From positions 210,001 through 242,000 of the forward strand of contig JAPZAR010000011.1 in NCBI GenBank assembly GCA_027460535.1: a stretch of 32,000 bases of DNA. The letters are read 5' to 3'. This document shows, one piece after another, positions 7,590 to 28,308 of this stretch. The position numbers and the translations under genes were made by a program. This DNA is from Candidatus Methanoperedens sp. (GTDB taxonomy: Archaea > Halobacteriota > Methanosarcinia > Methanosarcinales > Methanoperedenaceae). Within the stretch, counting starts at the first letter, position 1, and each line of letters opens with the position of its first letter. The notes beneath the pieces were generated by a model. That model saw only the letters and a list, made by a program, of their open reading frames with translations. It ran no database searches and had not been told where the DNA came from.

Positions 7590-8879
7590 TTATTTCTTGC
7601 GCATCCAGACCCAATAGATTATAACTACGAATGCAATAAATATCACAAATATCAATACTGCCAACATGGGATTATAGGTCACTGGCGCTTTTATACCAGT
7701 TTGAATGGGGGTAGGTGTTGGCGCCGGGGTTTTGATGCCGGGCACCGGGGGACTGTATGTTACCTGTATGATTTTTGTTATGTTGTTCCCGTATCTGTCG
7801 GAAGCGGTTATGATAATATTATTTGCCCCTTCAAAAAGCGTGATTGTTTGATTCCATACCTCAGTTCCTGCGAATTTACCATTGACCAGTACTTCTTTGA
7901 CCCCGGATTCGGAAAAAGCCGTGCCTGAAACGATAATTGTCTGGTTCGTGGATGTTTCACCCTGGTCGGGCGATTCGATCATCAATTGAGGCGGGGGAGG
8001 TGCCCTGAATACATGCCATGTGTTGCCCGATGCCGCGTATATGTAATCACCCGATGGACGGATGGCTATGGCACTTTTATCTGCGAGTCCCGTCATCGAA
8101 AAACTGCCTGCGATCTTTGGTGCATGAGGATTGCTGACATCCAGCAGATCAAATTGCGATGTCCCGTCAGCCTGTGCGAGATAAACCCCGCCATCCGATA
8201 TTGCTATATCATAGACAATTTTTGTTCCGATAGTATGGAACATCTCTGTTGGCGTTGATGGATCGGACACGTCGATTATATAAAATCCCATTCTCCGCGC
8301 ACCTGTTAGAAATGCGTAATTTCCAGATGCTGCCACCGCTATTCCACCCAATCCCTGAATATACCCGCTGACATCGGATTGCTGAACGTAAAACTTACCC
8401 ACAAGCAAGGGGTTTGCTTCGTCGCTCAAATCGAAGATGAGCATTCCGGTGTTGGAATCGGCCACATACATATATCTGCCGGCGACAGCTACGTCATTTG
8501 CGGAGCTGAAATACGAGTAATGGTAAATTTCCCGTGGGTTTCCCGGGTCACTTATGTTGAGCACATATACCCATCCTGGACCTGCTGCAACATACAACTT
8601 TTCATCCGAGATCGACAGGCCAAGAACCCTATCAGATCCGCCAAAGTCATTGAATCTGGTAGCAATTTTCGGTCGTTCTGGATCGCTTGTGTTGTATATC
8701 AGAAGCGAGTTATCATCAGCGATAAACAGGTAACCTTCATAGAACTCTGCGCCATGGGGGTTGGAAGTTGTGAAAGTGGCTATCTCGCTCAGGTTTTCTA
8801 AAGGCGCTCCCCGTGTTGATCCCAGGATAGCGGATGACACCAGCATTAGCAGAAAGAACCCCCTTAACATATTTTTCAC
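7590..8879 (-). CDS. LVIVD-repeat beta-propeller surface protein with N-terminal signal peptide and C-terminal TM anchor
   Basis: Repeated LVIVD-type motifs (LLIYNTSDPERP, VYVLNISDPGNP, MLIFDLSDEANP, FYIIDVSDPSTP, FDLLDVSNPHAP). N-terminal hydrophobic signal (FFLLMLVSSAILG). P/T-rich linker, then C-terminal TM helix (MLAVLIFVIFIAFVVIIYWVW) followed by basic residues. Confidence 0.8.
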   Translation of the reverse strand: MKNMLRGFFLLMLVSSAILGSTRGAPLENLSEIATFTTSNPHGAEFYEGYLFIADDNSLLIYNTSDPERPKIATRFNDFGGSDRVLGLSISDEKLYVAAGPGWVYVLNISDPGNPREIYHYSYFSSANDVAVAGRYMYVADSNTGMLIFDLSDEANPLLVGKFYVQQSDVSGYIQGLGGIAVAASGNYAFLTGARRMGFYIIDVSDPSTPTEMFHTIGTKIVYDIAISDGGVYLAQADGTSQFDLLDVSNPHAPKIAGSFSMTGLADKSAIAIRPSGDYIYAASGNTWHVFRAPPPPQLMIESPDQGETSTNQTIIVSGTAFSESGVKEVLVNGKFAGTEVWNQTITLFEGANNIIITASDRYGNNITKIIQVTYSPPVPGIKTPAPTPTPIQTGIKAPVTYNPMLAVLIFVIFIAFVVIIYWVWMRKK

Positions 8880-8901
8880 AATAAGATTTAGAGTATTATG
8901 T

Positions 8902-8909
8902 TATTTAAA
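8902..8909 (-). promoter_or_regulatory. TATA-box-like element (TTTAAATA on the minus strand) upstream of the LVIVD gene
   Basis: Reverse complement of tatttaaa lies 23-30 nt upstream of ATG 8879, consistent with an archaeal promoter giving a leaderless or short-leader mRNA. Confidence 0.4.
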
Positions 8910-8963
8910 CCTATCCAATTCAGACTGCCGATAGAATTTGCAGGATAGCATTCCAGATATGCT

Positions 8964-9004
8964 CACCGCAAAGAGCTCGAAGAAGCGCGGCAGTAGTCTT
9001 TTAT
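8964..9004. repeat. 41-bp direct repeat, copy 1 (downstream boundary of the AT-rich cassette)
   Basis: caccgcaaagagcTcgaagaagcgcggcagTagtcttttat matches 11318-11358 at 39 of 41 positions in the same orientation. Confidence 0.9.
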
Positions 9005-9044
9005 TTCAAATGTTCTTAGCATGGAGGGAAATATGGAGAGCGTC

Positions 9045-9299
9045 TCAAGCTGTAGCTTCACTCAAGCTCAATTCGCCCGCTGCAAGCGGGTGAACAAGTA
9101 AGTCGGATTTTTGGAATTTTTTCATAAGTTTGTCAATCTTTTCCGATTCTTTCGGAGAATAATAGGCTTCACCGCATTCATTACAGATATATGCGGTAAT
9201 ATTTTTTATGACCAGTATCTCTTCTCCCACCTTTACAACAAACTCGGTTTTTCCTTTCATTAACTTGCCTTTGCAGAAACTGCATCTATCGGGTTTCAT
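9045..9299 (-). CDS. YgiT/MqsA-N-type zinc-ribbon protein (84 aa)
   Basis: Two Cys pairs, CSFCKG and CNECGE, with the intervening beta-rich segment typical of YgiT-type zinc fingers. No HTH domain follows. AGGAAGGA Shine-Dalgarno-like motif upstream. Confidence 0.7.
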   Translation of the reverse strand: MKPDRCSFCKGKLMKGKTEFVVKVGEEILVIKNITAYICNECGEAYYSPKESEKIDKLMKKFQKSDLLVHPLAAGELSLSEATA

Positions 9300-9343
9300 T
9301 ATTAGTCCTTCCTTATTCTGTTATCAATCCATTTAGTTTTTAT

Positions 9344-10603
9344 TCATAGCAGAATATCTTTGGCAAATTCTCTTACCTGCGACTTATTTTCATCAGGACA
9401 GAAAACGTATAACTTTAAAAGAGGTTCTTGTGAGCCGAAAATAGGAGACTCTTTTTCGATTTCGTGAAGCCCTTCATCGTCAAGAATGAGTATGGGGGTC
9501 TCACCTGACTTAAAAAATTCATAAGAAGATTTGTATAATGTATTCTCGATTTTTTGTAAATGCACTATAATAAAATCTTTATCACAATTGCATTTTTCGG
9601 CCAATTCTTCTTCTAATATCTTGAAGTCTTTGGGTTTCAATCGCATTATTTTCCTTTTTTTCATTGGATTTAATTTTCTAAGGTCTATTTCGAATCCCCT
9701 TTTCAACAGATTTCTATTTTCCAAATCGTTTATTAATTTGAATGAGTTGCTTTCTTTGTTCGATAATATTTTTATGAAAAGCCTGCTGTCATCCAGCGAT
9801 AGGTAGTTCTCCAAAAATTCATCGTTATCAAATTTGAGTAAATCCTCATCTAAAATCCCGTCATGTATGGCTATCTCCACAGCGCGATTTAGCATATTGT
9901 CTGAAATTGCCCTGACATGATGATAATATACTTGGGTATGCATCAAAAACCGAGCCAGACGATAACTTTCAATAGCATCTTGCCCTTTTTTCAAAATCGC
10001 AATCTCTGATCTCTCTCCATCGACCACTTTTTGTATGGTATGAAGAATCCTTTCAAGATCGAATATACCATATGCTACGCCTGTGTGGTAGGAATCTCTT
10101 CTTAAATAATCCAATCTATCCGCATCGATGTTTCCAGAAATAATTTTGCCATTGACGCTATCATTTTTTTCATTAAATAAAGAAAGAATATCATCTTTCA
10201 AGCCACCCAGAATCTTGTCTAAATCCTCATCTTCTTCTATTATCCGGAGTGTAATATCCTCATGGCTGATCTCTTTTTTGTTCACATTCTCAAGAATAGC
10301 TTCAAAATTATGGGATAAAGGTCCATGCCCGACATCATGGAGCAACGCAGCATAGCGAACAATCTCAATCTCATGGTCGCTTAGTCTGAGCTTTTCTGCC
10401 ATTCTGGTTGCTATATGAAGAACTCCAAGCGTATGCTCAAATCTGGAATGGCAGGCGCTTGGATAGACCAGATGAGTGTTTCCCAATTGCTTAATTCGCC
10501 TGAGTCTTTGAACGACGGGTGTACTTAAAAGCTCCAGTTCTTTATGTGTGAGCCCGATAAAACCATAAAGAGGATCCCTGAAAAATTTTTCAAATTCAAG
10601 CAT
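9344..10603 (-). CDS. SAMHD1/dGTPase-type HD-domain phosphohydrolase (COG1078-like, putative dNTP triphosphohydrolase)
   Basis: Complete HD metal and catalytic set: HSRFEHTLGV, LLHDVGHGPLSH, DADRLDYLRRDSYHTGV. 419 aa. The ATG overlaps the upstream gene's stop (TAATG). Very AT-rich coding sequence. Confidence 0.85.
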   Translation of the reverse strand: MLEFEKFFRDPLYGFIGLTHKELELLSTPVVQRLRRIKQLGNTHLVYPSACHSRFEHTLGVLHIATRMAEKLRLSDHEIEIVRYAALLHDVGHGPLSHNFEAILENVNKKEISHEDITLRIIEEDEDLDKILGGLKDDILSLFNEKNDSVNGKIISGNIDADRLDYLRRDSYHTGVAYGIFDLERILHTIQKVVDGERSEIAILKKGQDAIESYRLARFLMHTQVYYHHVRAISDNMLNRAVEIAIHDGILDEDLLKFDNDEFLENYLSLDDSRLFIKILSNKESNSFKLINDLENRNLLKRGFEIDLRKLNPMKKRKIMRLKPKDFKILEEELAEKCNCDKDFIIVHLQKIENTLYKSSYEFFKSGETPILILDDEGLHEIEKESPIFGSQEPLLKLYVFCPDENKSQVREFAKDILL

Positions 10604-11190
10604 TACTCAGCCTGACAAAGATTCAATTGCTTTAAAAGTTCGACCGCAGTATCAATTTGTGACTGGTCCAGTTTCCAGCCAAAAGATTCGGCTGTTAATG
10701 TTATTTCTTCAGGTGTCATAGGCTTACCCTGCTCTGAAAGAATGTAATTTACTTTTGCAGCCCACGATAGAATATTTACATCAAGGTTCGCGGTTTTTTT
10801 GCAGATCTTGACTAAATTTACAATTTTATTATATTCATCCGTGTGTTCTTTCTTAATATGTTCGGTTATCTCATTGCCGTCTCTGGAAATTGTATAGCAG
10901 TACCTTTTCCAGTCCTCAGAGACTGTAAATCCGGTTGTTTCGCGGGTTTCCACTTCTTCTTTCACAAAATCGAGGTATGTAAGCTCGTGGATGGTGCTGG
11001 AGACTTCGGAACTATAGGGACCGTAGTAATGCGGCTTATATTTTACATCAACAAGTCCAAATAAAGATTCAAAATAGACCAGTTTTTGAATCGCAGTTCG
11101 CCCTGGAATACAATCTCCTGCGGCTTTAATGGTTATTAATATCGCATCCAAAAGTTCCAATTTAATCCCTCTGATAGCCTCTTGTAACAT
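10603..11190 (-). CDS. Panacea/DUF4065 (SocA-like) domain protein, putative antitoxin
   Basis: Signature AIQKLVYFESLFG followed by HYYGPYSSEV matches the DUF4065/Panacea core. The start was set at internal ATG 11190, which has TATA-like boxes directly upstream. The ORF-track extension to 11367 reads through the promoter and the direct repeat. Confidence 0.7.
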   Translation of the reverse strand: MLQEAIRGIKLELLDAILITIKAAGDCIPGRTAIQKLVYFESLFGLVDVKYKPHYYGPYSSEVSSTIHELTYLDFVKEEVETRETTGFTVSEDWKRYCYTISRDGNEITEHIKKEHTDEYNKIVNLVKICKKTANLDVNILSWAAKVNYILSEQGKPMTPEEITLTAESFGWKLDQSQIDTAVELLKQLNLCQAE

Positions 11191-11207
11191 ATATTTAATT
11201 TTTATAG

Positions 11208-11215
11208 TATTTAAA
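11208..11215 (-). promoter_or_regulatory. TATA-box-like element (TTTAAATA) for the cassette operon, implying a leaderless transcript
   Basis: Minus-strand sequence is catTTTAAATActATAAAAAttaaatatATG. The TATA octamer lies 18-25 nt upstream of ATG 11190. Confidence 0.45.
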
Positions 11216-11317
11216 TGCTGATGAGTTGTTTTAGGGGGGGAGAGGGCATAAACTCTAACGAAGCGGGGCGAAAGTATTCTGATAACACAAACAGGAGCAG
11301 ATACAGTAATTAAAATC

Positions 11318-11358
11318 CACCGCAAAGAGCGCGAAGAAGCGCGGCAGCAGTCTTTTAT
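11318..11358. repeat. 41-bp direct repeat, copy 2 (upstream boundary of the AT-rich cassette)
   Basis: caccgcaaagagcGcgaagaagcgcggcagCagtcttttat; 39 of 41 identical to 8964-9004, 2354 bp away, in direct orientation. Confidence 0.9.
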
Positions 11359-11540
11359 AAAAAGCAACGAACTGATGCGAACTTGTAAGAACTCGGCGGT
11401 GCGATGTGAGCGCGCGGCGCCTTTCGCCTTTTGAGAATAAACGACGACCGCATCAAAGTTATTATTACAGAAATGATAATTTTAGGACTTTTACTTGTGG
11501 TTTTATAGCGTATCGATATAAAACAATAACGTCCCTTCCC

Positions 11541-11897
11541 TCAATGTCCCGCTCCTCCCGCTTCCGCGTGCACCGCCGCATACCTCTCCGTGATCAGCGC
11601 GCGCTTGAGCCTGAACATCACCTTCTGCTTATCGAAATTATACTGTTCTGCCAGCGTCCTGATGAGCCTCTTCTTTGATGCGCCTTTCAAGCTCATCTCA
11701 GACATGATACCGTCAACGAACTCCTTGCCCCGGTCAGCTTCCTTCTTAGCCTCGGCTTTTATTTCAGGCGAAGGCGCTTCAGCTTCTACAGCTTTGGGCG
11801 CCGCCTTTTGCACATCGGCCGTCCCCGGCGTCGCTGCATTCTCAGTTGGCTTTTCTGTTTTGACTGCTTTCTTTACTACTTCCGCCATGCCCATCAC
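11541..11897 (-). CDS. small K/A/E-rich protein (118 aa), last gene of the hdr/fdh-like operon
   Basis: The ATG overlaps the stop of the upstream FdhA-like gene (ATGA at 11894-11897). Low-complexity K/A/E/P N-terminal half, then a predicted helical C-terminal half (FVDGIMSEMSLKGASKKRLIRTLAEQYNFDKQKVMFRLKRALITERY). No family recognised. Confidence 0.55.
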   Translation of the reverse strand: MMGMAEVVKKAVKTEKPTENAATPGTADVQKAAPKAVEAEAPSPEIKAEAKKEADRGKEFVDGIMSEMSLKGASKKRLIRTLAEQYNFDKQKVMFRLKRALITERYAAVHAEAGGAGH

Positions 11898-13297
11898 CTC
11901 GATATCTCAACGGGCGTGATAATACCTTTCTCTATCCCGAACCTGTTACCTGTGAGCAGGATACTATCCTGTACAGGCGCGACCTTAAATTTCTTTTCAA
12001 CGGCGCTTCCGTTTGACTTTATCTTTAACATGCCGCCTTTCAGGAGTTTGAGCGCCCTTACAGTGTTGAGATTCAGCTCCACGAAATCGTTGTCATCAGG
12101 CAAACCAAACCACATGAAAGGGTTATACACGCTCACAAGTGCAGTTTTTGTTTCAGGCGGTTTTGGTGCCGCCTGGATTGCGCCGTATGCTGGTCTCTCG
12201 TATTTCGGGATCGTGAACTCATCGACTGCGTTAATCCCCAGCACCTTTTTCATGGTCTCGTGCAGTGAATTGAACTCGAATTTGGTACCCGCAATTATCC
12301 CGAGCGCATCAAGCCCGCTAGTTCCAGCGCCGCCCAGTGATTGCGCCCTTCCTTCATTATTGAGGAGCGTGCCTTTTTTCCTGTACAGGGGCTCATGGGC
12401 TATCACCACGTTCGCTTTTGTCGTGCCTGCATGTCCGGTCTGGACGATCAGGTTCGTGAGCTTTGAAAGGGTCTCAGAAGGAATCAGCGCGGATGGGTCG
12501 GATTCCAGGCAGAACAGAGTCTTTACCGCCCCTTTGTTGATATCCTCAACAAGCTGCGCCAGTGACTTTTGCTTTGCATCCTTAGAAAGGATATAAGCGC
12601 CCGTCGAATTCGCGAAGGGCTTGAGGAACGTTACTTTTGAGCCTGCGCTCTTTGCAAGTGAAAGCACGCTCTTCACCTGCTCAACATCCGAGAGCGGATG
12701 GAAATCCGAGATAACAAGCGAATCTTTCGTAAGCTGAAGTTTTGGAATATCGGCAGGTCTGATATTCTCATCGGCAAGAGGCAGATCTTTCCACCATACA
12801 GCTGTAATTCTTGCACCTTTATTCTTGGCAGAAAGAAGCCGCCGGACTATCAGCGGATATTGCTCATAGGGATCAATGAAAAGCACTATATGCTTTGCAG
12901 CCTCGATTTCGCTATAGGGTATCCCAATGCTGAGCGTCTGATACACATCCTTCGGGAATGCCTCAAAGTTTGCTCCTGTGCACAAATATGATTCAGCCAG
13001 TTTCTGGAACGCAAGCAGCTCCTCGCATGTGGTATTTCCGGGGGATAAGAATGCAACCTTGCCTGCCGAGATCCTCCCAGCCGCCTCTTTTGCCGCATCT
13101 TCAAGCGTTGTTTCTTTTCCATCCACCGCCGATTTTACAGGTGAATAGAGGCGGGGAAGGCTCATCCCGAACCTGCATAACTTCCCGGCATTGGCAGGTG
13201 AGGATTTCCTGAAATCCACTTCAATAGCGCCATTTTCGCGGATATACAGACCGCAGCCGAAATTGCAGCCCGGGCATATGGTTGAATATACGTTCAT
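11894..13297 (-). CDS. short molybdopterin-oxidoreductase family protein (FdhA/FwdB-like, 467 aa)
   Basis: N-terminal 4Fe-4S Mo/W-bisPGD-type motif (CPGCNFGCGLYI, then GKLCRFG). C-terminal beta-barrel-like 'molydopterin dinucleotide binding' style segment (FVELNLNTVRALKLLKGGMLKIKS). Much shorter than canonical FdhA. Confidence 0.65.
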   Translation of the reverse strand: MNVYSTICPGCNFGCGLYIRENGAIEVDFRKSSPANAGKLCRFGMSLPRLYSPVKSAVDGKETTLEDAAKEAAGRISAGKVAFLSPGNTTCEELLAFQKLAESYLCTGANFEAFPKDVYQTLSIGIPYSEIEAAKHIVLFIDPYEQYPLIVRRLLSAKNKGARITAVWWKDLPLADENIRPADIPKLQLTKDSLVISDFHPLSDVEQVKSVLSLAKSAGSKVTFLKPFANSTGAYILSKDAKQKSLAQLVEDINKGAVKTLFCLESDPSALIPSETLSKLTNLIVQTGHAGTTKANVVIAHEPLYRKKGTLLNNEGRAQSLGGAGTSGLDALGIIAGTKFEFNSLHETMKKVLGINAVDEFTIPKYERPAYGAIQAAPKPPETKTALVSVYNPFMWFGLPDDNDFVELNLNTVRALKLLKGGMLKIKSNGSAVEKKFKVAPVQDSILLTGNRFGIEKGIITPVEISR

Positions 13298-13300
13298 GTC

Positions 13301-14452
13301 TCAGACCTCCAGCTTTGCTTCAAAGTATGGTGGCTTCCTCAGATCCATTCCGGGCTCGTACTTTAATTGCTCCTGCACAGGATTTGCAAAGCGTCTGTAC
13401 AGCCTTGTAAGCGGTATGTCCACCGGGCATACATCGCTGCACTGCCCGCACCCGATGCAAGAGTCAGCAAGATGCAAGAAGCGCACAAGGTGATACATGG
13501 ACATCTTGTAGGCATCGCCTCTTGAATGATACTCCGTGCACTTTGAAATATCGCCGCATGAGCAGGTGGGACACACAGCCTTGCATGCCCCGCAGTCTAT
13601 GCAGTGCTCAAGCTCTTTCCTGAAATAATCGAGCCTGTTATCGATCGGGACAAAGACCTTATCCTTCCATTTCTTTCCAAGACCTTCCATCACGCCTTTT
13701 ATCTTGGCACGTGCTGCAACTCCTTTCTCATCTGGCTTCTGCACTTGTACATATCCGGCGTCGATGGCATTCTGAAGGAGCTTTGCCCCCTTTTCAGAAT
13801 TTATTTCAACGAATGTGGCTTTGCCAACAAGGTCTCCGGTGACGCCCCAGTTGCCGCAGGCAATGTCGGCGTTGCCGGGGATCTTTATCGTGCAATATCG
13901 GCAGCTCTCGCGTCTTCCGTATCCTTTCTCTTCAAGTTCGTCGATGGTAATTGCATGCTCTTTTCCATCCTTTGTCTCGAAGATGAGTTTCCCTTTCTCA
14001 ATTTCTTCACCGTGAACATCTTCGGGTTTTATCTTGTACATCACTTCAAGCATCTCGCGGGTTACGACAGGATGCATCGATCCTCCGCAGTTCAATCCCA
14101 CGATGAACGTATCATTAAGATTTACCGCATTGCGCTTGCCCTGCTCGATTATTCCGCGTACATCACATCCCTTGGCAGGAAGTGCTATTTTCAAATCTCT
14201 ATTCGCGATCAACTTTGCAAAGTTGCTCGGAACAGAGTGCAGGGAACCTGCAGAGTTCAATACTTCGTTGACATCAGAGGTGATGATCGGAACAGCCTCG
14301 AACTCATTTATTTTCTTAAGTACTACAACAGCATCCACAAGCTTCTTTTCAAGCGCCGCCGCCAGCATTGAGGTTACAAGACCTCCCGAGCCTCCCCGGC
14401 TCCTGACCTCTTCTTTTGTTGACCAGCCCACGTACATCTCACCTTTTTGCAT
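13301..14452 (-). CDS. FrhB/FdhB-family F420-interacting flavoprotein with C-terminal 2x[4Fe-4S] ferredoxin domain
   Basis: FrhB/FdhB N-terminal pattern (RGGSGGLVTSMLAAALEKKLVDAVVV, GLNCGG). C-terminal CIDCGACKAVCPTCSC and CIGCGQCSDVCPVD. The start overlaps the mvhD stop (TGATG). Confidence 0.75.
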   Translation of the reverse strand: MQKGEMYVGWSTKEEVRSRGGSGGLVTSMLAAALEKKLVDAVVVLKKINEFEAVPIITSDVNEVLNSAGSLHSVPSNFAKLIANRDLKIALPAKGCDVRGIIEQGKRNAVNLNDTFIVGLNCGGSMHPVVTREMLEVMYKIKPEDVHGEEIEKGKLIFETKDGKEHAITIDELEEKGYGRRESCRYCTIKIPGNADIACGNWGVTGDLVGKATFVEINSEKGAKLLQNAIDAGYVQVQKPDEKGVAARAKIKGVMEGLGKKWKDKVFVPIDNRLDYFRKELEHCIDCGACKAVCPTCSCGDISKCTEYHSRGDAYKMSMYHLVRFLHLADSCIGCGQCSDVCPVDIPLTRLYRRFANPVQEQLKYEPGMDLRKPPYFEAKLEV

Positions 14453-14904
14453 CAGGCTACCCCCTCTGGTTTAAGCGGGCTTGGCCCGATCTTTTTTATC
14501 TGCTCCGTGACATCGCGGATGAAATTAGCGAACTTCTCCCCTTCACTAGCAGATATCCAGTTAAGCTGGAGCCTCTCTTTCTCGATTCCCAATTCCCGCA
14601 CCACATTTTCAAGGAATTTGTATTTTATTTTTGTCTTATCGTTGCCATTGACATAATGGCAATCCCCTATGTGGCATCCCGTGACCAAAACAGCATCTGC
14701 ACCTTCAAGGAACGCATTGAACACATGAAGCGGGTCTATCCTGCCTGAGCACATGACTCGTATGATCCTTGTGGACGGTGGCTGCTGGAATCTCCCCATG
14801 CCCGCGCTGTCTGCGCCCCCGTAGGAGCACCAGTTGCAGCAGAACGCCACGATCTTGGGTTCCCAGCCGTTCCCCGCCACCGTGGGCTTCTCAGCAGCAC
14901 TCAT
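14452..14904 (-). CDS. mvhD: MvhD-type [2Fe-2S] protein (methyl-viologen-reducing hydrogenase delta subunit family), copy 1
   Basis: WEPKIVAFCCNWCSYGGAD, VMCSGRIDP and GCHIGDCHY. The start was trimmed to ATG 14904, which overlaps the hdrA stop as ATGA. The ORF-track start at 15027 lies inside hdrA. Confidence 0.85.
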   Translation of the reverse strand: MSAAEKPTVAGNGWEPKIVAFCCNWCSYGGADSAGMGRFQQPPSTRIIRVMCSGRIDPLHVFNAFLEGADAVLVTGCHIGDCHYVNGNDKTKIKYKFLENVVRELGIEKERLQLNWISASEGEKFANFIRDVTEQIKKIGPSPLKPEGVA

Positions 14905-16907
14905 GCTGCTACCTCCTGGAACTTGAACACGTTCTTGACCTGAGCAAGCACCTGTTCGTTCTTGAAGTGGCTCTGCTCGAGCGCACCGGTCGGGCATGCT
15001 GTCACGCACGTCCCGCAGCCCTTGCAAAGTGCTTTCATGACATTTGCCTTACCGATCGATTCATCCATCTTTATGGCCTGGAACGGGCACATGGGTATGC
15101 ATACACCGCATCCCACGCATACATCCGGATTAACGACGGCAGTGATGCCTTCTGTTATGGCTTTCTTGTTCTTGAGCAGTATTGTTGCACGGCTTGCACA
15201 TGCGCTGCCCTGGGAGACCGCATAGGGAATGTCCTTTGGTCCTGATGCAACGCCTGCAAGGAACACTCCATCGATGGTGGTGTCCACGGGCCGCAGCTTT
15301 GGATGGGCTTCCATGAGCAGGCCGTCAGCCGCTTTCGATAATTTCAATAACTGCTGGATCTGGTTTATGCCCTCATTCGGTACAATACCCGTGGCGAGGA
15401 CAAGAAGGTCGAATTCAAGATTGCGAATATCATTTGCCAGCGTATCCTCGACACGCACCTTGATGTTCTTTGTAACCGGGTCTTCCTTCACTTCCGCAGG
15501 TCTTCCGCGAAGGAACTTCACGCCCAGGTTTCGAGACCTGTTATACGATTCCTCGTAACCCCTGAAGGGTGTCCTGATATCTATGTACATTATCGTATGG
15601 TCTGTCTCCGGGCGCTTTTCTTTCAGCAGCTGCGCGTTCTTGATGGTGTACATGCAGCACACGCCAGAACAGTAAATATTGGTAGCCTTATCCCTCGAGC
15701 CAACGCAGTTCACGAATCCAACACGTATCGGTTCCTTGCAGTCCGAAGGTCGAACGACGTGCCCGCCCGTTGGACCTGCGGCATTAAGTAATCTTTCAAA
15801 TTCCATTGCAGTGATGACATTATCATATAATCCGTACCCGAAATCGTGCCTGGGCTCGGGATCGTAGGTCTTGAAGCCGACCGCCCCTATTATGACGCCC
15901 ACGTTAAGATCAGTATACGAAGGCTGCATATCATAATTTATCGCGCCGCGCTCGCACGCCTTTGCGCATGCCTTGCATGAAATGCAGTTCTCCTTATCAA
16001 GAACGGCGCGCAGCGGCACAGCCTGGGGGAAGGGAACAAAGATCGCTTTTCGCGTGCCAAGTCCTTCGTTGAAATCATAGGGCACCTCAACTGGGCACAC
16101 CTCACTGCATTTGGCGCAGCCTGTGCATTTGGCGATATCAAGGTATCTGGGTTTATGCTCGACCTTCACATTGAAATTGCCCACATAACCGTCCACGGCT
16201 TTCACTTCTGAATAGCTCATTATCTTGATATTCTTGTTCCTTGCCACTTCCACCATCTTCGGACCAAGGATGCAGATGGAGCAGTCGTTCGTGGGGAACA
16301 CCTTGTCAAAGCGTGCCATCCTGCCGCCGATTGAGGGCTCCTTCTCGACCAGGTACACCTGGAATCCCATGTCAGCGAGGTCAAGCGCAGCCTGCATTCC
16401 TGCCACACCCGCACCGATGATAAGGGCTTTGTCAGTGACCGGTACTTCGCTTGCCTGGAGGGGTTCAAGCAATTTTGCGCGCTCAACACCCATGCGCACG
16501 AGATCCTTGGCTTTCTCTGTGGCCTTCTCCTTTTCCCACATGTGTATCCATGAGCAGTGGTCTCTGATATTCACGAATTCAAGGAAGTACTGGTTCAATC
16601 CCATCTGCTCGATACATGCGCGGAATGTGGGTTCGTGTGTCTTTGGCGAACATGCCGCAACCACAACACGATTGAGGTTGTACTCTTTTATCTTCTGCTG
16701 GATGTCGGCCTGTCCGGAATCAGAGCACGTGAACTTGTTGACGGAAGTGACCTTTACGCCGGGCAGAGTTCCAATATAATCAACAACAGCTTTTGTGTTA
16801 ACAACACCGCCTATGTTCACGCCGCATTCGCATACAAAAACGCCTACCCGTTTTTCATCGCTATCCTTCTTAATATCAGTACTTTTTGATTCAGTACCAT
16901 CGCTCAT
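14901..16907 (-). CDS. hdrA: heterodisulfide reductase subunit A (HdrA), canonical architecture (668 aa)
   Basis: N-terminal Cys domain (VGVFVCECGVNIGG), FAD motif (IIGAGVAGMQAALDLAD), FPTNDCSICILGP, inserted ferredoxin (CTGCAKCSEVCP, CISCKACAKACE), HdrA signature (NCVGSRD..YCSGVCCMY), C-terminal ferredoxin (CVGCGVCIPMCP, CKGCGTCVTACP). Start ATG 16907 overlaps the mvhD stop. Confidence 0.9.
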   Translation of the reverse strand: MSDGTESKSTDIKKDSDEKRVGVFVCECGVNIGGVVNTKAVVDYIGTLPGVKVTSVNKFTCSDSGQADIQQKIKEYNLNRVVVAACSPKTHEPTFRACIEQMGLNQYFLEFVNIRDHCSWIHMWEKEKATEKAKDLVRMGVERAKLLEPLQASEVPVTDKALIIGAGVAGMQAALDLADMGFQVYLVEKEPSIGGRMARFDKVFPTNDCSICILGPKMVEVARNKNIKIMSYSEVKAVDGYVGNFNVKVEHKPRYLDIAKCTGCAKCSEVCPVEVPYDFNEGLGTRKAIFVPFPQAVPLRAVLDKENCISCKACAKACERGAINYDMQPSYTDLNVGVIIGAVGFKTYDPEPRHDFGYGLYDNVITAMEFERLLNAAGPTGGHVVRPSDCKEPIRVGFVNCVGSRDKATNIYCSGVCCMYTIKNAQLLKEKRPETDHTIMYIDIRTPFRGYEESYNRSRNLGVKFLRGRPAEVKEDPVTKNIKVRVEDTLANDIRNLEFDLLVLATGIVPNEGINQIQQLLKLSKAADGLLMEAHPKLRPVDTTIDGVFLAGVASGPKDIPYAVSQGSACASRATILLKNKKAITEGITAVVNPDVCVGCGVCIPMCPFQAIKMDESIGKANVMKALCKGCGTCVTACPTGALEQSHFKNEQVLAQVKNVFKFQEVAA

Positions 16908-17353
16908 TTCTTCACTTCCTTGACAGGGTTTTGCCCCAATTTCTTGATCTCTTCTGTAAAATCTCGAATAACTTCTGAGAATCGTAATCCTTCGCTGGCA
17001 GAGATCCACTCAAGCCGAAGCCTTTTATCAAACCCCAGTTTTGCCAGTGCTTTCTTTGTATTATTTATCCTGACCTCTGCGTTCTTGTTCCCGTCGATGT
17101 AGTGGCAGTCACCGATATGGCATCCAGCCACGAGCACTCCGTCTGCTCCGTCTTTCAATGCTTTCAGGATAAATGCGGGTTCGACCCGGCTTGAGCACAT
17201 AACACGGAGTACCTTCACAGTCGGAGGATACTGGAACCTGCTCACGCCCGCAAGGTCTGCGCCAGCATATGAACACCAGTTGCAGCAGAATGCCAGGATA
17301 TTCGGCTCCCAGCCATTTCCCGCCTGCGCGCCTGACGCCGCTTCTGCGCTCAT
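16904..17353 (-). CDS. mvhD: MvhD-type [2Fe-2S] protein, copy 2
   Basis: WEPNILAFCCNWCSYAGAD, VMCSSRVEP and GCHIGDCHY. Clearly paralogous to copy 1. 4-nt overlaps at both ends. Confidence 0.85.
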   Translation of the reverse strand: MSAEAASGAQAGNGWEPNILAFCCNWCSYAGADLAGVSRFQYPPTVKVLRVMCSSRVEPAFILKALKDGADGVLVAGCHIGDCHYIDGNKNAEVRINNTKKALAKLGFDKRLRLEWISASEGLRFSEVIRDFTEEIKKLGQNPVKEVKK

Positions 17354-20300
17354 ACCGTTACCTCCACAACGCCGATGGAAATGCTCTTTACGCCCTTATC
17401 AAATGCATTGATCGCCTCACCTATCTCTTTTGATGAGAAATGCTGGGCTGTGATTGCTCCAGCGGGGCATGCAGCCGCGCAAGAGCCGCAGCCCTTGCAC
17501 GCAGCAGGATTGATGCGCGATTTCTTAGTGGTGTAAGTGACCTCTTCGACTTTGACCGTCACATCCTGCAGCGATGGTGCATTATATGGACACATAGTAA
17601 CGCACGTTCCGCATCCTATGCATTTTGCCTCATTCACAACGGATATCGCGCCCTCGGTCTCGATGAACTTCCGGGATAGAATTGTGCAGGCACGGGATGC
17701 AGCGGCGCTTGCCTGCGATATGGCTTCATCCATGAGCTTCGGGGCCTGGGCGCTCCCGCACAGGAATACGCCGTCAGTGGCAAAATCCACCGGGCGAAGC
17801 TTGGGATGGGCTTCCAGGAAGAATTTGTTCTTATCAAGAGGTATCTTGAATAGCTGGTTAATCTCTTCGTTCTCGCCCGCAACGAGAGGTGTGCTCAGGA
17901 CCACAAGATCTGAAGCGATCTCGATATCATCGTTGAGCATGGAATCATGCACGACAACTGAACTGCCCTGAACTTTTGGGGGATTTTCCGCATCATATTT
18001 AATGAATATTACGCCAAGGTCTCTTGCATTCTCGTAAAGCTTTTCCATCACTCCGTACGTCCTCATGTCCCTGTAAAGCACATAGACGTTTGCGCTGCTT
18101 TTCCCTTTTTTGATCCTTATTGAGTTTTTCACCGCATCCACGCAGCATGTGCGCCCGCAGTATTCACGCTCTTTATTTCGCGCCCCGACGCACTGGATCA
18201 TCGTGATAGTATTTGCTGTAATACTTTTTCCAAGCATTTTTTCAAGCTGCGCCTGCGTGACCACACGGCTATCCTTGCCATAATTGAACAATCCGGAAGG
18301 CTCAAAGTTCCGTGCGCCCGTTGCAACAACGGCCGCCCCAAAGTCAACTGGTATTTCTTTTCCTTTTGAAAGCACAACTCCCTTGAAGTTACCAAGATAG
18401 CCTTCCACCTTCATGAGTTTGGCCTCATTTACGATCTTGATTTTCTTATTCTCATCAACTCTCTTGATAAGGTCTCTTAGCACATCTGCAGGTTTCTTTC
18501 CATCGTATAGTTCGGTCATTTCCCGGAGCATCCCGCCAAGTTCCTTTTCCTTCTCGACAAGGGTCACATTATAACCATTATTGGCAATATCGAGCGCAGC
18601 TGTCATACCGGCCACCCCGCCGCCGAGAACTAGCGCATTGTTGATAAGCGACACTTTTTGCTTGTATAGAGGCTGGAAAAGGGCTGATTTTGCAACTGCC
18701 ATCTGCACGATCCCCTTTGCCTTCTCGGTGGCTTTCTCTTTCTCTTTCATGTGTACCCAGGAGCAGTGCTCGCGGATATTGGCAAGTTCGAAAAGATACG
18801 GGTTAAGTCCTGCCTCGCGGCATGTATTCTGGAAAAGAGGCTCGTGGGTTCGCGGAGTACATGATGCCACGATAACACGATTAAGATCGTTCTTTGCGAC
18901 AGCATCTTTTATCGTGACTTGGGAGTCTGAGGAACATGCGTACAGCATTTCCTGCGCATGCGCAACACCGGGCAGCGTTCTTGCATACTCTACGACGGCT
19001 GGGACATTGACAACGCTTCCTATGTTTATCCCGCAGTGGCAGACGAAAACGCCGATGCGAGGCACGGGAGAAAGCGGCTTCTCTACAGGGAACTTTCTCT
19101 CTTTAATAAGGGTTCCCCTTTCACCGGATAATAACGCTGCAGCCTTGGATGCCGCTGCGCTTGCCTGGGCCACGGTGTCGGGAATATCTTTCGGCCCCTG
19201 GGCCACGCCGCAGACATATACCCCGGCAACGCTCGTCTCCACGGGGTTTTCAATGCTTGTGGCAATATTCCCGAAATCATCAAGTGCAATGCCGGAAGAT
19301 TGGGCAATATTACGGGTCGAATCTGCGGGATCAAGGCCGATCGAGAGCACTACCATGTCGAAATCCCGGTTCACCAGATCCCCTGTATTGAAATCTTCGT
19401 ATTTCAAAGATAAAGCATTGTTCGAATCTACGATAACTTCAGGTGGCCTGGAATTAATGTATTTGATGCCGTACTCCCTCCGTGCCCTGTTGTAGAACTC
19501 CTCAAAGTTCTTGCCGAAGGCGCGTATGTCTATGTGGAAAATCGTGATATCCAGTTCAGGGTCATGCTCTTTTGCGATTATGGATTCCTTGGTGGCATAC
19601 ATGCAGCACACCGAGGAGCAGTGTTTCCTGTTGATGCGCGGATTGCGGGAGCCAACGCACTGTATGAATGCGATCTTTTTCGGGACTTTGCCGTCTGACT
19701 GCCTTGTCACATGGCCTTGCGTGGGGCCGCTTGCGCTCAGGAGACGCTCGAACTGGAGCGATGTAATTACATCTGGATGGTCGAACCTGTACTGCCTCAG
19801 AACTGAGGGGTCAAAGGGTTTAAAGCCCGTTGCGAGGACTACGGAACCTACGTTGAGTTCGATCTCTTTATCTTTCTGTTCATAATCCACTGCTTTTGGC
19901 CCGCATACCTTCTTGCATACGCCGCATTTCCCTTTTGTGAGATACAAACAATGAGCGGAATCTATCGTCGCCACTCTCGGGATCGCCTGGGCAAATGGAA
20001 TATAGATGGATTTGCGCTTGCTCATTCCTGCATTATATTCATCCGCCACTTTCGAGGGGCATTTCTCAGTGCATGTGCCGCAGCCCGTGCATTTTGTCTC
20101 ATCAACATAACGAGCTTTTTTAACCACTTTTACATTGAAATCCCCGGCTTTGCCGGTGATGGATGTTACATCGCTGTATGAGAGCAATTCGATGTTAGGA
20201 TGTCTTGCGGTCTCAACGAGTTTGGGAGAAAGTATGCACATGGCGCAATCATTCGTCGGGAAGGTCTTGTCGAGTTGGGCCATCGTTCCCCCGATACTCG

Positions 20301-22917: not shown

Positions 22918-23060
22918 GGGGCATATGGATGTGCATTTGCCGCACTGATAACAGACTTGGACGTTACTCGTTTGTACCCTCCAGCATTTCTATGGTTTAT
23001 AACTTTCTTAATGATTAGAAGATATAATTGGTTTTAAAGATTTCGATTTTTAACGATGCA

Positions 23061-23100
23061 GAGCATCATTATTAATAATGGAGCATAATTATTAATAATG
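23061..23100. promoter_or_regulatory. tandem 20-bp repeat, each unit carrying an AT-rich palindrome; operator-like site upstream of the hdr operon
   Basis: gagcatcattattaataatg followed by gagcataattattaataatg (19 of 20 identical). Unit 1 contains the perfect 14-bp palindrome cattattaataatg (23067-23080). Unit 2 contains the 12-bp core attattaataat. It lies about 75-115 nt upstream of the candidate hdr operon start. Confidence 0.45.
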
Positions 23101-23270
23101 TTACTTTGATATGGCTCCACGGTCTCCTATCGCAATTATAATGTTGTTCAATTCCTGACTCGTGGGTTCTCTGTTGTTTTCAAGCTCAAAGACATCTATT
23201 ATTGCACTGTAAGTGCAGTGAAGTCTGTCCGCCGTTTTTCTTTTGACATATCTTGTCATATTATTATAAT

Positions 23271-23786
23271 CTATTTTTCTTCCTCTGCCCGGATAATACA
23301 GAGGTTATTTTCCGCTTTTGCATGAGGGTCTACCAGACCAAGCAGCCTTTCGTCTTCAAGGTTGATCCTTTCATCTGTCTTGCTTTTGAACCCGTATTTG
23401 CCGAAATCTGTCAGTGTGGGTCTTCTTTTAATATAATGCCCTCTCTTGAACTCAAAGGAGAATGGAAGCGACCGTTCGCATGCTGCCCTCACATCTTCCA
23501 CAACGCTTTCCTTCTCGACCTCCACAAGGATCTCTCCAACTATGATATGCAATTCCAAAGCGCAATCTCCGACATGGATGACCTTCCTGTCAGGATGGTT
23601 CACGTCTGCACCAGTACCGGGTCCGCATGTGACTTTTCTGGGCAGATTTTTCCCATTGATGAGCATCCTGATTACACCTTTTGTCTTATCGATCTCGTTC
23701 AAAACTTTTTCCGCAGTCTCTGGTTGTAACAGTCTTTGCGGAAATACCCTTACCTGGATGGGTTTGTCTGGAGTAGTTTTTTCCAT
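23271..23786 (-). CDS. mcrD: methyl-coenzyme M reductase operon protein D (McrD), stand-alone
   Basis: IQVRVFPQRLLQPETAEKVLNEI, NLPRKVTCGPGTGADVNHPDRKVI, LPFSFEFKRGHYIKRRPTLTDFGKYG. Collinear with the McrD family along its full length (171 aa). Confidence 0.85.
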   Translation of the reverse strand: MEKTTPDKPIQVRVFPQRLLQPETAEKVLNEIDKTKGVIRMLINGKNLPRKVTCGPGTGADVNHPDRKVIHVGDCALELHIIVGEILVEVEKESVVEDVRAACERSLPFSFEFKRGHYIKRRPTLTDFGKYGFKSKTDERINLEDERLLGLVDPHAKAENNLCIIRAEEEK

Positions 23787-24010
23787 CTAATTCCTTCTTG
23801 TCCAAATAAACGATGTCATGAATATTAAGTGTTTTGGTTCGTACTTATACGAATAAAATATATAATCGTGATAGTTATCACCTTGGAGACGTGATTTTGA
23901 GCCGGGAATCTTTATATCTATCTACCTTGTAATAAACAGGTTAATCGGAGGATGGTACTATTCGTGGATACGATGACGACCGAAAAACAAGAAGTTTTAT
24001 TTTAATCGCG

Positions 24011-26436: not shown

Positions 26437-27186
26437 TTAAACGGCCAAAAAACTTTGCAGCATTCTGGCATCTTCAGGTGGAAAGCCTGAATAATATTTA
26501 CTGAAATATCCAAAAACTTCAATAGACTCTCCCGTCAATCTTCTGATCCGCTCTGCCCAAAGGCTTATATCACTTTTCCTATCTTTTTCCACCTCTCCGA
26601 GCATCCCGTTTATTGTTTTCCTATCCCCCTCCCATCTTATGTAAGTGAAATCAGCAGTCAAAGTATCTATCCTGGGCATCGATGAGGCGTCTATCCAGAC
26701 CAATGCCACTCCATGATCCCTGAGCAAATCATAAAATTTTTCTTCAAGCCATTTTTTATTTCTCACCTCCAAAGCATAGCGGTATCCTGCAGGCAGAATG
26801 GACAGGAACTCCTTCAGGATATCGAATTGATCGGGTTTGAATCCCGCCGGGAACTGCATAAGCATCGGCCCGAGTTTATCTTCCAGCAAAGACATGTGTT
26901 CGATGAAGACCTCCATTTCTCTTTCGCAATCCTTCAGCATTTTATCATGTGTTATTACCCTGGGGAATTTTGCCGAGAACGTAAAATCCTTTGGTGTCTG
27001 CATATTCCATTTCTTGACCGTTTCCGCGTAGGGTATTCGATAAAACGTGCTGTCTATCTCGACTGTATTAAAAACCTTCGCATATTCATGAAGGAGGTCT
27101 CCAGCACTGGTATTCTCAGGATAGAAACTGCCAGTCCAGAAATCGTAGCTCCAGCCCATGGTACCTATATGCAACTTTTCTTTCAT
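26437..27186 (-). CDS. DUF72 (YecE-like) family protein
   Basis: N-terminal IGTMGWSYDFWTGSFYP, FNTVEIDSTFYRIP, QFPAGF, ALEVRNKKW and YIRWEG are characteristic DUF72 blocks. Confidence 0.85.
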   Translation of the reverse strand: MKEKLHIGTMGWSYDFWTGSFYPENTSAGDLLHEYAKVFNTVEIDSTFYRIPYAETVKKWNMQTPKDFTFSAKFPRVITHDKMLKDCEREMEVFIEHMSLLEDKLGPMLMQFPAGFKPDQFDILKEFLSILPAGYRYALEVRNKKWLEEKFYDLLRDHGVALVWIDASSMPRIDTLTADFTYIRWEGDRKTINGMLGEVEKDRKSDISLWAERIRRLTGESIEVFGYFSKYYSGFPPEDARMLQSFLAV

Positions 27187-27594
27187 CTATTTCATTATAA
27201 GAGTTTGTTTTACCTCTTTAATCTTATCTCTCCCGCTTCTTTTCCTGCGGGCTTTTGATCTGCATCAAAGGAAAGCAATGAAAGTGTGATTTCTATTACT
27301 TATGTCACTGAAGTCAGGATCAGAAATAAGATTTTTGAATAATTCATAGAAAGATATAAATCTACGAATATACTATATTGTGATGGAGATCTTGAGGCTG
27401 GTACATGAAAAAGTTAAAGTATTATTTCCCACCACAAATACATATAGATCAAAGAACAGGATTGATACTTGGATTGTTGCTCATCCTTCTTGCTCTTTTG
27501 CTGGGTTCTGCGAACGCTTGAATAAATTTGAATTCTCACAGGGTGTATTATCTATACCAACATATTTATTTTAGAATAAGCGAATAAGTAACTA

Positions 27595-27948
27595 ATGTCT
27601 CTCATCAATAAGGTTTCAAAATTTTTTAAGAAAAAAGACCGGACGTATGCTCCGGGAAAAGAAGACAAAGTCAAAATCCATAATTATGTGGGAAAGTTCG
27701 TGGTCCAAAACGGGGCTGAAATAGGTGAAAGTGTTGCTGTTGAAAGGGGAAGGCTCATAATAAAGAAATCGGATAGTTATTCTTCCATCCCGCTTGAAAA
27801 AATCCAGACCAACGCAGAAAAAATTGTCGTGGGTGATTTTGACATGGAAGAATCCCGGAAGTTTGGAAAAGAGTGGTTTGAAAAAAAGGATACCCTGAAA
27901 TTTGATGATAAGGGAATGCTTATTTTAAACAAACCCGAGCCTCAATAA
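27595..27948 (+). CDS. hypothetical protein (117 aa)
   Basis: Clean ORF with ATG start and plausible composition, 12 nt upstream of pth2 on the same strand. No family recognised. Confidence 0.5.
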   Translation: MSLINKVSKFFKKKDRTYAPGKEDKVKIHNYVGKFVVQNGAEIGESVAVERGRLIIKKSDSYSSIPLEKIQTNAEKIVVGDFDMEESRKFGKEWFEKKDTLKFDDKGMLILNKPEPQ

Positions 27949-27960
27949 TTCTTACTGGAC

Positions 27961-28308
27961 ATGCCAGAATACAAACAGTGCATCGTTGTGCGGGATGATC
28001 TCAAGCTCTCAAAAGGCAAACTTGCTGTCCAGGTAGCACATGCCGCTGTCTCAGCTTCTGATTTTGCAGGAAGGGATGTCCGAGAGGCATGGAAGGAAGG
28101 GGGACAAAAAAAAGTCGTATTGAGAGTAAACACGCTGCGGGAACTTTTTGAATTAAAGGAGATAGCTAGAAAGCATGGTCTGTCTACGGCTTTGATCGAG
28201 GATGCGGGACTTACAGAAGTGCCCCCTGGAACGGTCACGGTATTGGGCATCGGTCCTGCGGAAGCCGGCGAACTTGATAAGATAACAGGGCATTTGAAGC
28301 TTCTCTGA
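27961..28308 (+). CDS. pth2: archaeal/eukaryotic-type peptidyl-tRNA hydrolase Pth2
   Basis: [56 protein letters not shown]. Full-length match to the Pth2 pattern (115 aa). Confidence 0.9.

Follow-up and report, generated by a model that had tools for sequence, protein, structure and literature searches.

The window analysed here, a stretch of 32,000 nucleotides (nt) from Candidatus Methanoperedens sp. (contig JAPZAR010000011.1, positions 210,001 to 242,000), contains three small genes between two direct repeats of 41 nt, downstream of an hdr/fdh operon whose last gene is termed p118 in the following. The syntenic locus was compared from 61 genomes, and this comparison showed that modules at the locus have been gained, lost, permuted and laterally exchanged, with breakpoints that recur at gene ends, inside the conserved 3' end of p118, and at the 3' end (GCGGTG) of an intergenic repeat element, which was named EL. 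We propose that the chromosome of Candidatus Methanoperedens has a hot spot directly 3' of p118, at which each genome would carry different small defence or toxin-antitoxin modules. In one subclade, co-oriented copies of EL would separate the modules, and the 41-nt repeats would be the part common to two copies, namely a complete EL that would stand 5' of a two-gene module and a truncated EL that would precede the promoter of the LVIVD gene. The DNA between the repeats would then consist of the operon of a conserved gene pair, which encodes a protein of 195 amino acids (aa) and an HD-domain protein, and of an orphan zinc-finger gene, joined exactly at the stop codon of the HD gene. We infer that the EL copies and the p118 3' end serve as portable homology or as recombination sites, and that segments may have been integrated Campbell-style, deleted, or replaced via DNA of other Methanoperedens lineages. 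Taken as a whole, this picture of a hot spot with portable homology seems probable to us.

The homologues of the FdhA-like flanking gene were all from Candidatus Methanoperedens, and the nearest species-level relatives were 82-87% identical. A first assignment to ANME-1, suggested by the MetF and hdr content, was discarded, since every close homologue came from Methanoperedens. The hdr/fdh operon including p118 is conserved, while the content 3' of p118 changes from genome to genome. The genes found there encode type I restriction-modification (R-M) systems, McrBC, a BrxC/D-like ATPase, a reverse transcriptase, Fic and DUF5131 or are remnants of RelE/Phd, and several lineages contain the pair of the 195-aa protein and the HD protein. 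The predicted gene content identifies the locus as an island of defence and toxin-antitoxin genes within a hot spot. The empty state is represented by L016, in which p118, one EL and the Dus gene follow each other and the single EL fills the spacer between the convergent genes. In L012 the order is EL, Fic, EL and Dus, in L039 it is EL, RelE with Phd, EL and Dus, and L005 unites p118, EL, Fic, EL, a RelE pseudogene with Phd, EL and Dus. EL, RelE with Phd, EL, a small gene with a helix-turn-helix (HTH), EL and Fic are found in L042, and EL, the gene pair, EL and Fic in L044. The window reads p118, EL, gene pair with zinc-finger gene, truncated EL and LVIVD. The module order is thus permuted in L042 compared to L005. 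L075 and L098 contain HsdM genes that are 92% identical and are separated by an indel of 2.3 kb, which comprises the gene pair and Phd, and the left edge of this indel is the exact EL end, GCGGTG. The variable content of low G+C between core genes and the varying presence and absence are reminiscent of defence islands at integration hot spots. The locus differs from them in that no integrase and no tRNA target was seen, that its modules have sizes of only 1-2.5 kb, and that a repeat family punctuates it internally. A tRNA gene as an att site was ruled out for the window, which contains no tRNA or tmRNA gene.

A lateral exchange became visible in L097, a contig of 3.3 kb from another sample. 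L097 and the window are 62-84% identical in FdhA and on the 5' side of p118, in contrast to 93-100% from about position 11700, within p118, through the spacer, EL, the partner gene (encoding the 195-aa protein) and the HD gene. This jump points to a recent recombinational transfer between diverged lineages. Its left breakpoint lies inside the conserved C-terminal coding region of p118, about 280 nt past the right 41-nt repeat.

The p118 protein has a conserved C-terminal domain of about 60 aa and an N-terminal part that is rich in Lys, Ala, Glu and Pro and very variable in length. The total length is 118 aa in the window (11541-11897), 161 aa in L097 (587-1072), and 217 aa in L044 (8471-9124).

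The 3' end of p118 is also found at other positions of the locus. In two lineages a direct repeat of its last 40-65 nt, including the stop codon, marks the far end of the island. In L013 this repeat has a length of about 57-65 nt, lies directly 3' of the HD gene, and closes an island of 5.8 kb with McrBC and the gene pair. In L098/L099 it has a length of about 40 nt, and the island of 10.4 kb contains the gene pair, a type I R-M system, an insertion sequence (IS) and other genes. In this respect, L013 and L098 resemble islands that are bounded by a duplicated gene 3' end. Furthermore, in L075 (105 nt), L018 (about 25 nt) and L011 (about 13 nt), the zinc-finger stop codon is joined at one common position to a p118 3' fragment, and this fragment starts at about window position 11668, near the L097 identity break. 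In L011 and L018, remnants of a DUF4258/zinc-finger gene pair, fused or shortened, stand directly 3' of p118. The junction leading to the p118 fragment begins with GACGC in these two loci, and the same five nucleotides directly follow the zinc-finger stop codon in the window, where they may be a weak trace of this junction; L075 has GATGCG at this position and then the longer p118 fragment. Because repeats of the p118 3' end bound islands elsewhere, this gene end is a better att-like candidate than the 41-mer. The pattern would fit an integration into, or a recombination within, the p118 3' end, in which case the zinc-finger pair would have formed the distal end of an ancestral island.

The same data could also mean that an integrative element once targeted the p118 3' end by site-specific recombination and has since lost its integrase, that everything between this gene end and the zinc-finger gene, both included, is what is left of it, and that the EL copies are only passengers. 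The direct repeats with stop codon around differing islands in L013 and L098/L099 would agree with this explanation, and so would the fusion to the zinc-finger stop at one point in L075, L018 and L011, the 5-nt trace in the window, and the identity break between the window and L097 in the same part of p118. However, none of the islands seen contains an integrase, the repeat lengths vary from 40 to 105 nt, the window lacks a second copy of the p118 3' end, and homologous recombination in the conserved C-terminal coding region could yield the same pattern. In our view such a remnant is possible, but rather unlikely. Portable homology at the hot spot, which we prefer, includes the p118 3' end as one of its sites and EL as the other.

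EL is an intergenic repeat element of about 105 nt, the 3' part of which is the 41-mer, and the copies that separate the modules have sizes of about 105-180 nt. Read on the minus strand, EL starts with a GC-rich leader, GCGCTCACATCGCACCGCC, which is followed by three tandem units of about 10 nt with the sequence (G)AGTTCnnA(C), i.e. (G)AGTTCGTA(C). The A/T centre, TTTTTTATAAAAG, reads TTTTTATAAAAG in the full copy of the window. The 3' section consists of two or three units of about 9 nt, CTTTGCG/CTTCGCG, and ends with CTTTGCGGTG; in the full window copy these units are CTTCTTCGCG/CTCTTTGCG and terminate in GCGGTG. This full copy is orthologous to the EL 5' of the same gene pair in L097, L044, L098, L101, L090 and L042. 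The homology of the spacer between operon and EL to L042 and L007 ends at 11429, beside the 5' edge of EL. The left copy in the window begins only with ATAAAAG, and it runs about 60 nt further into a conserved flank ('class B'), which is unlike the flank of the right copy ('class A'). As the right copy is full and the left copy is truncated, the 41 nt are merely their common part. Both window copies have a deletion of 6 nt, which is shared only by the orthologue of the right copy in L097. By this character the two copies are evidently each other's closest relatives, and the common private deletion links them by a recent duplication or gene conversion in this lineage.

Both flanks contain a TTTAAATA box, which is located at 8909-8902 in 'class B', 23 nt 5' of the GTG start codon of LVIVD (8879), and at 11215-11208 in 'class A', 18 nt 5' of the ATG. 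The last 95 nt or so of the 'class A' flank, including the TATA box, are kept in L004 and L013, both of which lack EL. It is unlikely that EL is the promoter of the gene pair, because the separate TTTAAATA box persists in the relatives without EL. In L042 (13142-13333), EL, the upstream region and the TATA box precede another cargo, a protein of 63 aa with an HTH-like sequence, and the homology to the window stops at the TATA box. Indels in the 9-nt units of EL hid any linkage of EL variants to upstream or downstream modules. Rfam yielded nothing for the window at gathering thresholds, and at permissive thresholds no EL copy in the region 8800-11600 and in six loci was matched; no Rfam family fits EL. 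RNAalifold did not reveal a consensus structure for 30 EL copies, and the window EL folds like shuffled sequence (z = -0.4).

In many genomes, the locus contains one to three matches to the window sequence between 11318 and about 11420, and these matches always end at 11318. A profile search with nhmmer detected 27 EL copies 3' of p118 in 16 loci, all of which are oriented like the operon. A relaxed EL pattern matched 28 JGI metagenome contigs, of which 2 contain the same EL type and 23 palindromic relatives, while 3 are probable chance matches. In the palindromic relatives the AGTTCG units form a perfect 3+3 palindrome, which is followed by another module and then by the same CTTTGCGGTG end, and this subfamily folds strongly (z = -6.6). 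The 23 palindromic elements among the 25 JGI family members are located in unrelated contexts, e.g., between lysA and cbiD (L081), and family elements often lie at contig ends, as is expected for multi-copy repeats. The 10-mer CTTTGCGGTG occurs 64 times in the 1.02 Mb of fetched loci versus 1.9 expected occurrences, in several contexts and in both orientations. The exact 26-nt core of the 41-mer was absent from the IMG/VR viral contigs and from the JGI metagenome contigs, and the relaxed family pattern was not found in viral contigs. The inverted match within the window EL has a length of only 6 nt (CACCGC/GCGGTG), and it is not retained in L005. No target-site duplication was recognized around EL among the aligned copies.

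A second repeat family with the architecture of the palindromic EL but another unit, AACCGCAGATGAACGCAGATAAACGCAGAT ... ATCTGCGTTCATCTGCGTTTATCTGCGGTT, was observed in L033 (1050-1195), which suggests that palindromic intergenic elements of '3+3 units' may form a class in Methanoperedens. L091, a metagenome contig of 2.1 kb, contains an Rfam match to domain V/VI of group II introns (22-98; 60.9 bits, E = 1e-9) and a palindromic EL relative about 1.8 kb away from it.

The wide distribution leads to an explanation in which EL is a dispersed repeat similar to miniature inverted-repeat transposable elements (MITEs) or repetitive extragenic palindromic (REP) sequences, or a functional intergenic unit, so that the bracketing of modules would be incidental and recombination would occur independently of EL. 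As such a unit, EL could act as a bidirectional archaeal terminator through its T-run/A-run centre, and its tandem units could bind regulators 5' of the module promoters. Several observations speak for such a role, i.e., the palindromic relatives between housekeeping genes and at contig ends, the excess of the 10-mer in both orientations, the EL of L016 that occupies an entire spacer between convergent genes, the location of EL 85-130 nt 5' of the TATA-led starts of downstream genes, and the presence of the module in loci without EL. The sequence-only reading had named a common dispersed intergenic repeat as an outcome that would speak against its insertion model; the family as a whole is indeed present at unrelated intergenic sites. 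The orientation of all 27 hot-spot copies in one direction, the permuted module order with EL at every boundary, and the edge of the L075/L098 indel exactly at the EL end speak against an incidental bracketing, and neither a conserved RNA structure nor an Rfam family supports a functional unit. Like MITEs, REPs and bacterial interspersed mosaic elements (BIMEs), EL is short, non-coding, multi-copy and intergenic, it has a palindromic subfamily, and its copies break metagenome assemblies. Unlike these, it lacks a recognized target-site duplication and clear terminal inverted repeats, and the hot-spot subfamily is strictly co-oriented and misses half of the palindrome. Neither an autonomous partner nor a parent transposase (RAYT or IS) turned up, although a dedicated search was not made. 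We regard this explanation, with EL as a dispersed repeat or a functional unit, as unlikely.

Alternatively, an undescribed cassette system of archaea might use the EL copies for recombination. An unlinked chromosomal recombinase, or a Xer-like enzyme of the host, would recognize the tandem AGTTCG units and the GCGGTG end and would insert, excise and reshuffle small modules, in analogy to the attC sites of integrons or to pdif sites. Integron cassette arrays indeed also have short co-oriented repeats after small modules, a permuted order, and an empty state with one repeat, but this is a resemblance only. The upstream neighbour is the hdr/fdh operon, and no IntI gene, attI site or Pc is located nearby. 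The attC sites are characterized by R''/R' cores (RYYYAAC/GTTRRRY) and an imperfect hairpin, whereas EL has neither and extends from a GC-rich leader to CTTTGCGGTG, and the modules have their own promoters and occur in both orientations, in contrast to integron cassettes. The pdif modules of Acinetobacter plasmids and the integrative mobile elements exploiting Xer (IMEX) are likewise small modules that are bounded by short repeats, and the pdif recombinase is encoded by the host and acts in trans. However, pdif sites are inverted and form a dif-like 11-6-11 dyad, while the EL copies are direct and apparently have no such dyad. A cassette system of this kind appears quite improbable to us. A literature search yielded no paper about repeats of this type or about integrons in Methanoperedens.

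For the window itself, the sequence-only reading had described two direct 41-nt repeats that are identical at 39 of 41 positions, are spaced by 2354 nt, and enclose three genes of low G+C content, without an integrase or transposase nearby, and had interpreted them as traces of a mobile or recombined insertion. The description of the repeats proved to be exact. With up to three mismatches, the window contains only these two matches to the 41-mer, while none was expected from 100 dinucleotide-preserving shuffles. The drop in base composition was confirmed by full calculation, i.e., the G+C content is 0.373 for 9005-11317 versus 0.473 for the remaining window, 300-nt windows have values of 0.29-0.43 between the repeats versus 0.44-0.56 in the adjacent flanks (8150-8900 and 11600-12650), and the G+C content at third codon positions (GC3) is 0.36-0.40 in the three enclosed genes, all on the minus strand, versus 0.55-0.61 in the hdr/fdh genes. 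The spot values of 23-28% G+C given for the HD gene underestimate the average of this gene, which is 0.366. Among the scanned open reading frames (ORFs) of the window, none had an integrase or transposase domain, as had been stated. The identical arrangement was found in three independent assemblies (SRR20964299, ERZ27247996 and SRR15677233), and it is therefore not an assembly artefact. Further patches of the window have a G+C content of 0.37-0.40 (1501-2500, 23001-24000 and 27001-28000), so that low G+C is not peculiar to the segment between the repeats.

The three genes do not form a unit. The homology of the window to L044, L004 and L013 ends precisely at the stop codon of the HD gene, and 2-3 nt past this codon the window switches to the tail of a DUF4258-type toxin gene, a spacer, and the zinc-finger gene. 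L075 contains an intact pair of DUF4258 toxin and zinc-finger antitoxin, while in the window the toxin gene is gone and only its final 9 nt or so are left. The zinc-finger gene is thus an orphan antitoxin gene from another pair. In L097, L044, L098, L101 and L004, the HD gene is followed by a whole or fragmentary Phd-type antitoxin gene in convergent orientation. In every relative the HD stop is the end of the module, and the claim that the three genes are one cassette is not supported.

Relative to three of the genomes, the gene pair is also not a recent foreign arrival. With the window as reference and with p118 excluded from the operon genes, the nucleotide identities to L044 are 88-90% for the pair and 83-86% for the operon genes, to L004 79-83% and 77-84%, and to L013 80-82% and 66-81%, respectively. 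The identity of the pair tracks that of the operon, and the pair is therefore an old resident relative to these three genomes, which does not support the insertion model of the sequence-only reading. Its G+C content is 0.36-0.37 in the window, L044, L004 and L013. Low G+C appears to be a stable trait of the module in all carrier genomes and no sign of a recent foreign origin.

It is very improbable that the three genes are one mobile cassette that was inserted by site-specific recombination, with the 41-bp repeats as attL/attR or as target duplication and with a recombinase encoded elsewhere; the tight bracketing by direct and nearly identical repeats, the private 6-nt deletion common to both, the G+C drop, the missing recombinase gene in the window and the single-copy empty state of L016 would all agree with it, but the repeat is a section of a longer element whose family was already present in many genomes, also at empty sites, the left copy is truncated and followed by another 3' flank, the zinc-finger gene lies outside the module in every relative, the module stands beside one EL or none in L098, L101, L004 and L013, and the L097 tract starts in p118. 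The boundary of the module is the HD stop and not the repeat, and since EL is multi-copy at filled and at unrelated sites, its duplication is not tied to this insertion. The expectation of an empty site with a single repeat was borne out by L016, yet none was found that joins the operon terminus to the LVIVD promoter. From the idea of a mobile or recombined insertion it can be retained that the locus is variable and recombining, that repeats delimit modules, and that a segment was exchanged with the L097 lineage, but not that a three-gene cassette was freshly inserted.

Several points weigh against the proposed hot spot with portable homology. No recombination event was directly observed. The L097 contig stops 53 nt after the HD gene, so that the tract in common with the window has no visible right end, and a second copy of the p118 3' end was not detectable in the window. 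All contigs with the exact HD protein keep the same arrangement, and an empty-site variant of the same species was not found. The gene pair occurs with a single EL in L098 and L101 and without EL in L004 and L013, and EL is therefore not required for the presence of the module. Many of the 27 EL copies are orthologous, so that the count of 27:0 for the orientation exaggerates the number of independent events. The spacer between FdhB and FdhA of Methanoperedens also contains EL-type elements, in either orientation, and because EL-type motifs are present in unrelated intergenic regions in both orientations, part of the bracketing could be incidental. Pfam revealed no recombinase domain in the islands of L013, L098 or L044. 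For the neighbouring ORFs of the relatives the Pfam census listed only the largest families, so that single matches to a recombinase would not be shown. The features of the segment are summarized in Table 1.

Table 1. Features at the p118 3' side of the hdr/fdh operon in the window (positions of the window; strand as given)
Feature	Position	Strand	Remark
p118, last gene of the hdr/fdh operon	11541..11897	-	118 aa, no family
Spacer between operon and EL	11423..11540	.	plus strand bears the 3' half of a small membrane-protein ORF, which is intact in L042
Full EL copy, about 105 nt	11318..11422	-	aligned copies in relatives
Right 41-nt repeat, 3' part of the full EL	11318..11358	-	ends ...CTCTTTGCGGTG on the minus strand
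'Class A' flank	11191..11317	-	conserved upstream region of the gene pair
195-aa partner protein, 'YwgA-like'	10603..11190	-	predicted DarG C-terminal (DarT-binding) fold
419-aa HD + HD_assoc_2 protein	9344..10603	-	start overlaps the upstream stop (ATGA)
Junction	9300..9343	-	last 9 nt or so of a DUF4258-type toxin gene and spacer, as in L075
84-aa YgiT/MqsA-type zinc-finger protein	9045..9299	-	orphan antitoxin of a DUF4258 + YgiT pair
GACGC	9040..9044	-	directly after the zinc-finger stop; weak trace of the p118 3'-fragment junction
Left 41-nt repeat, 3' part of the 5'-truncated EL	8964..9004	-	
5'-truncated EL (begins ATAAAAG) and 'class B' 3' flank	8900..9004	-	

The HD protein matches the Pfam families PF01966 and PF19276, and by sequence it matches the solved structures 2hek (3e-47), 2o6i/EF1143 (3e-46) and SAMHD1 (about 1e-25). 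It is thus a homologue of the deoxynucleoside triphosphate (dNTP) triphosphohydrolases of the SAMHD1/EF1143 type, with which it shares the HD domain and the C-terminal associated region; the same domain arrangement is found in the anti-phage dGTPases. In contrast to the latter, it remains far below the cut-offs of the curated models, i.e., the NCBIfam dGTPase models gave 15-39 bits at cut-offs of 152-494 (39 bits versus a cut-off of 393 for the best model), and the PADLOC dGTPase model matched with E = 1e-8, but covered only 73 residues. A viral or plasmid origin of the HD gene was considered and rejected, because there was no phage match and the relatives, mostly on large bacterial plasmids, are only about 30% identical.

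The 195-aa protein had been labelled as Panacea in the sequence-only reading. This identity (SocA_Panacea, DUF4065, PF13274) had no support, because the protein has no Pfam match even at E <= 10 and its 120 homologues are also without a precomputed Pfam domain, and the absence of PF13274 sets it apart from toxin-antitoxin systems of the PanA/Panacea type. At JGI the homologues are named YwgA, and nothing useful on YwgA was found in the literature. Weak matches to DarG models, a profile match to the DarG chain of 7yk3 (E = 5e-4), and a predicted model with a pLDDT of 90, which superposes on the C-terminal, DarT-binding domain of DarG (TM 0.60-0.68, probability 1.0), all indicate that the protein is better described by the predicted fold of the DarG C-terminus than by Panacea. 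As in DarTG and other two-gene toxin-antitoxin operons, a protein with a presumable toxin-binding fold is encoded by a gene that overlaps with a downstream enzyme gene. The pair differs from DarTG in that it has no macrodomain and no DarT, and that the partner is an HD phosphohydrolase. The overlapping pair is conserved in other methanogens, e.g., Methanocella arvoryzae, with identities of 40-63%, and there it adjoins type I R-M genes or genes for AAA ATPases. It is a reasonable inference that the antitoxin-like partner would control the HD enzyme. In L097 (1449-2013) a frameshift divides the partner gene into two parts (147 + 38 aa) and the HD gene is intact, which would be odd if the partner were an essential antitoxin.

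The zinc-finger protein was recognized by TIGR03831 (53.4 bits, cut-off 20.2) and PF15731 (30.4 bits, cut-off 30). It has the YgiT zinc finger (CxxC...CxxC) in common with the MqsA/YgiT antitoxins, and a relative encodes a DUF4258 toxin as its partner. In contrast to MqsA it has only 84 aa and no HTH domain, and the window lacks the toxin gene.

A few additional observations concern the surroundings. An ISAZ013-family DDE transposase gene is located amid fragments with Methylase_S domains (HsdS-type) in L098 (10282-11487), within the type I R-M island 3' of the gene pair. The genes of the FdhB-like and FdhA-like proteins abut in the window (13297-13301) and in about 10 genomes, with 1-9 nt between them, while in most other Methanoperedens (loci L004-L063) they are 90-560 nt apart. 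This gap has a variable sequence and sometimes contains repeat elements. It often starts at TGA (aatgagTGAAGAT...), followed by an in-frame small peptide rich in glycine and leucine, and a read-through, a selenocysteine codon or a small ORF are possible. At 23059-23108, a tandem repeat of 20 nt (GAGCATCATTATTAATAATG x2) overlaps with an AT-rich inverted repeat in an intergenic patch of low G+C between the hdr cluster and a gene of the McrD family. The regions 14732-15316 and 17178-17819 contain diverged direct repeats of 44-147 nt with 64-77% identity (families D1-D3), which lie between the genes of the HdrA-like proteins of 702 aa and 1017 aa and their FlpD partners. These repeats go back to an internal duplication that made the hdrA-flpD units paralogous.

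Archaea of the genus Methanoperedens are important for the anaerobic oxidation of methane, and their accessory DNA, such as Borgs and plasmids, is actively studied. In their chromosome, small defence and toxin-antitoxin modules turn over in a hot spot directly after a core operon of energy metabolism, and an exchange of a 2.4-kb segment has taken place between lineages that differ in about a quarter of the bases of the adjacent operon genes. EL is an apparently undescribed intergenic repeat family that marks the boundaries of these modules. Across methanogens, the combination of a protein with the predicted fold of the DarG C-terminus and a SAMHD1-like HD enzyme represents a candidate toxin-antitoxin or defence system. 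If EL or the p118 3' end prove to be recombination sites, they would offer a handle on gene mobility without integrases in archaea, and the p118 3' end, if it is such a site, would be a natural landing site for genetic tools.

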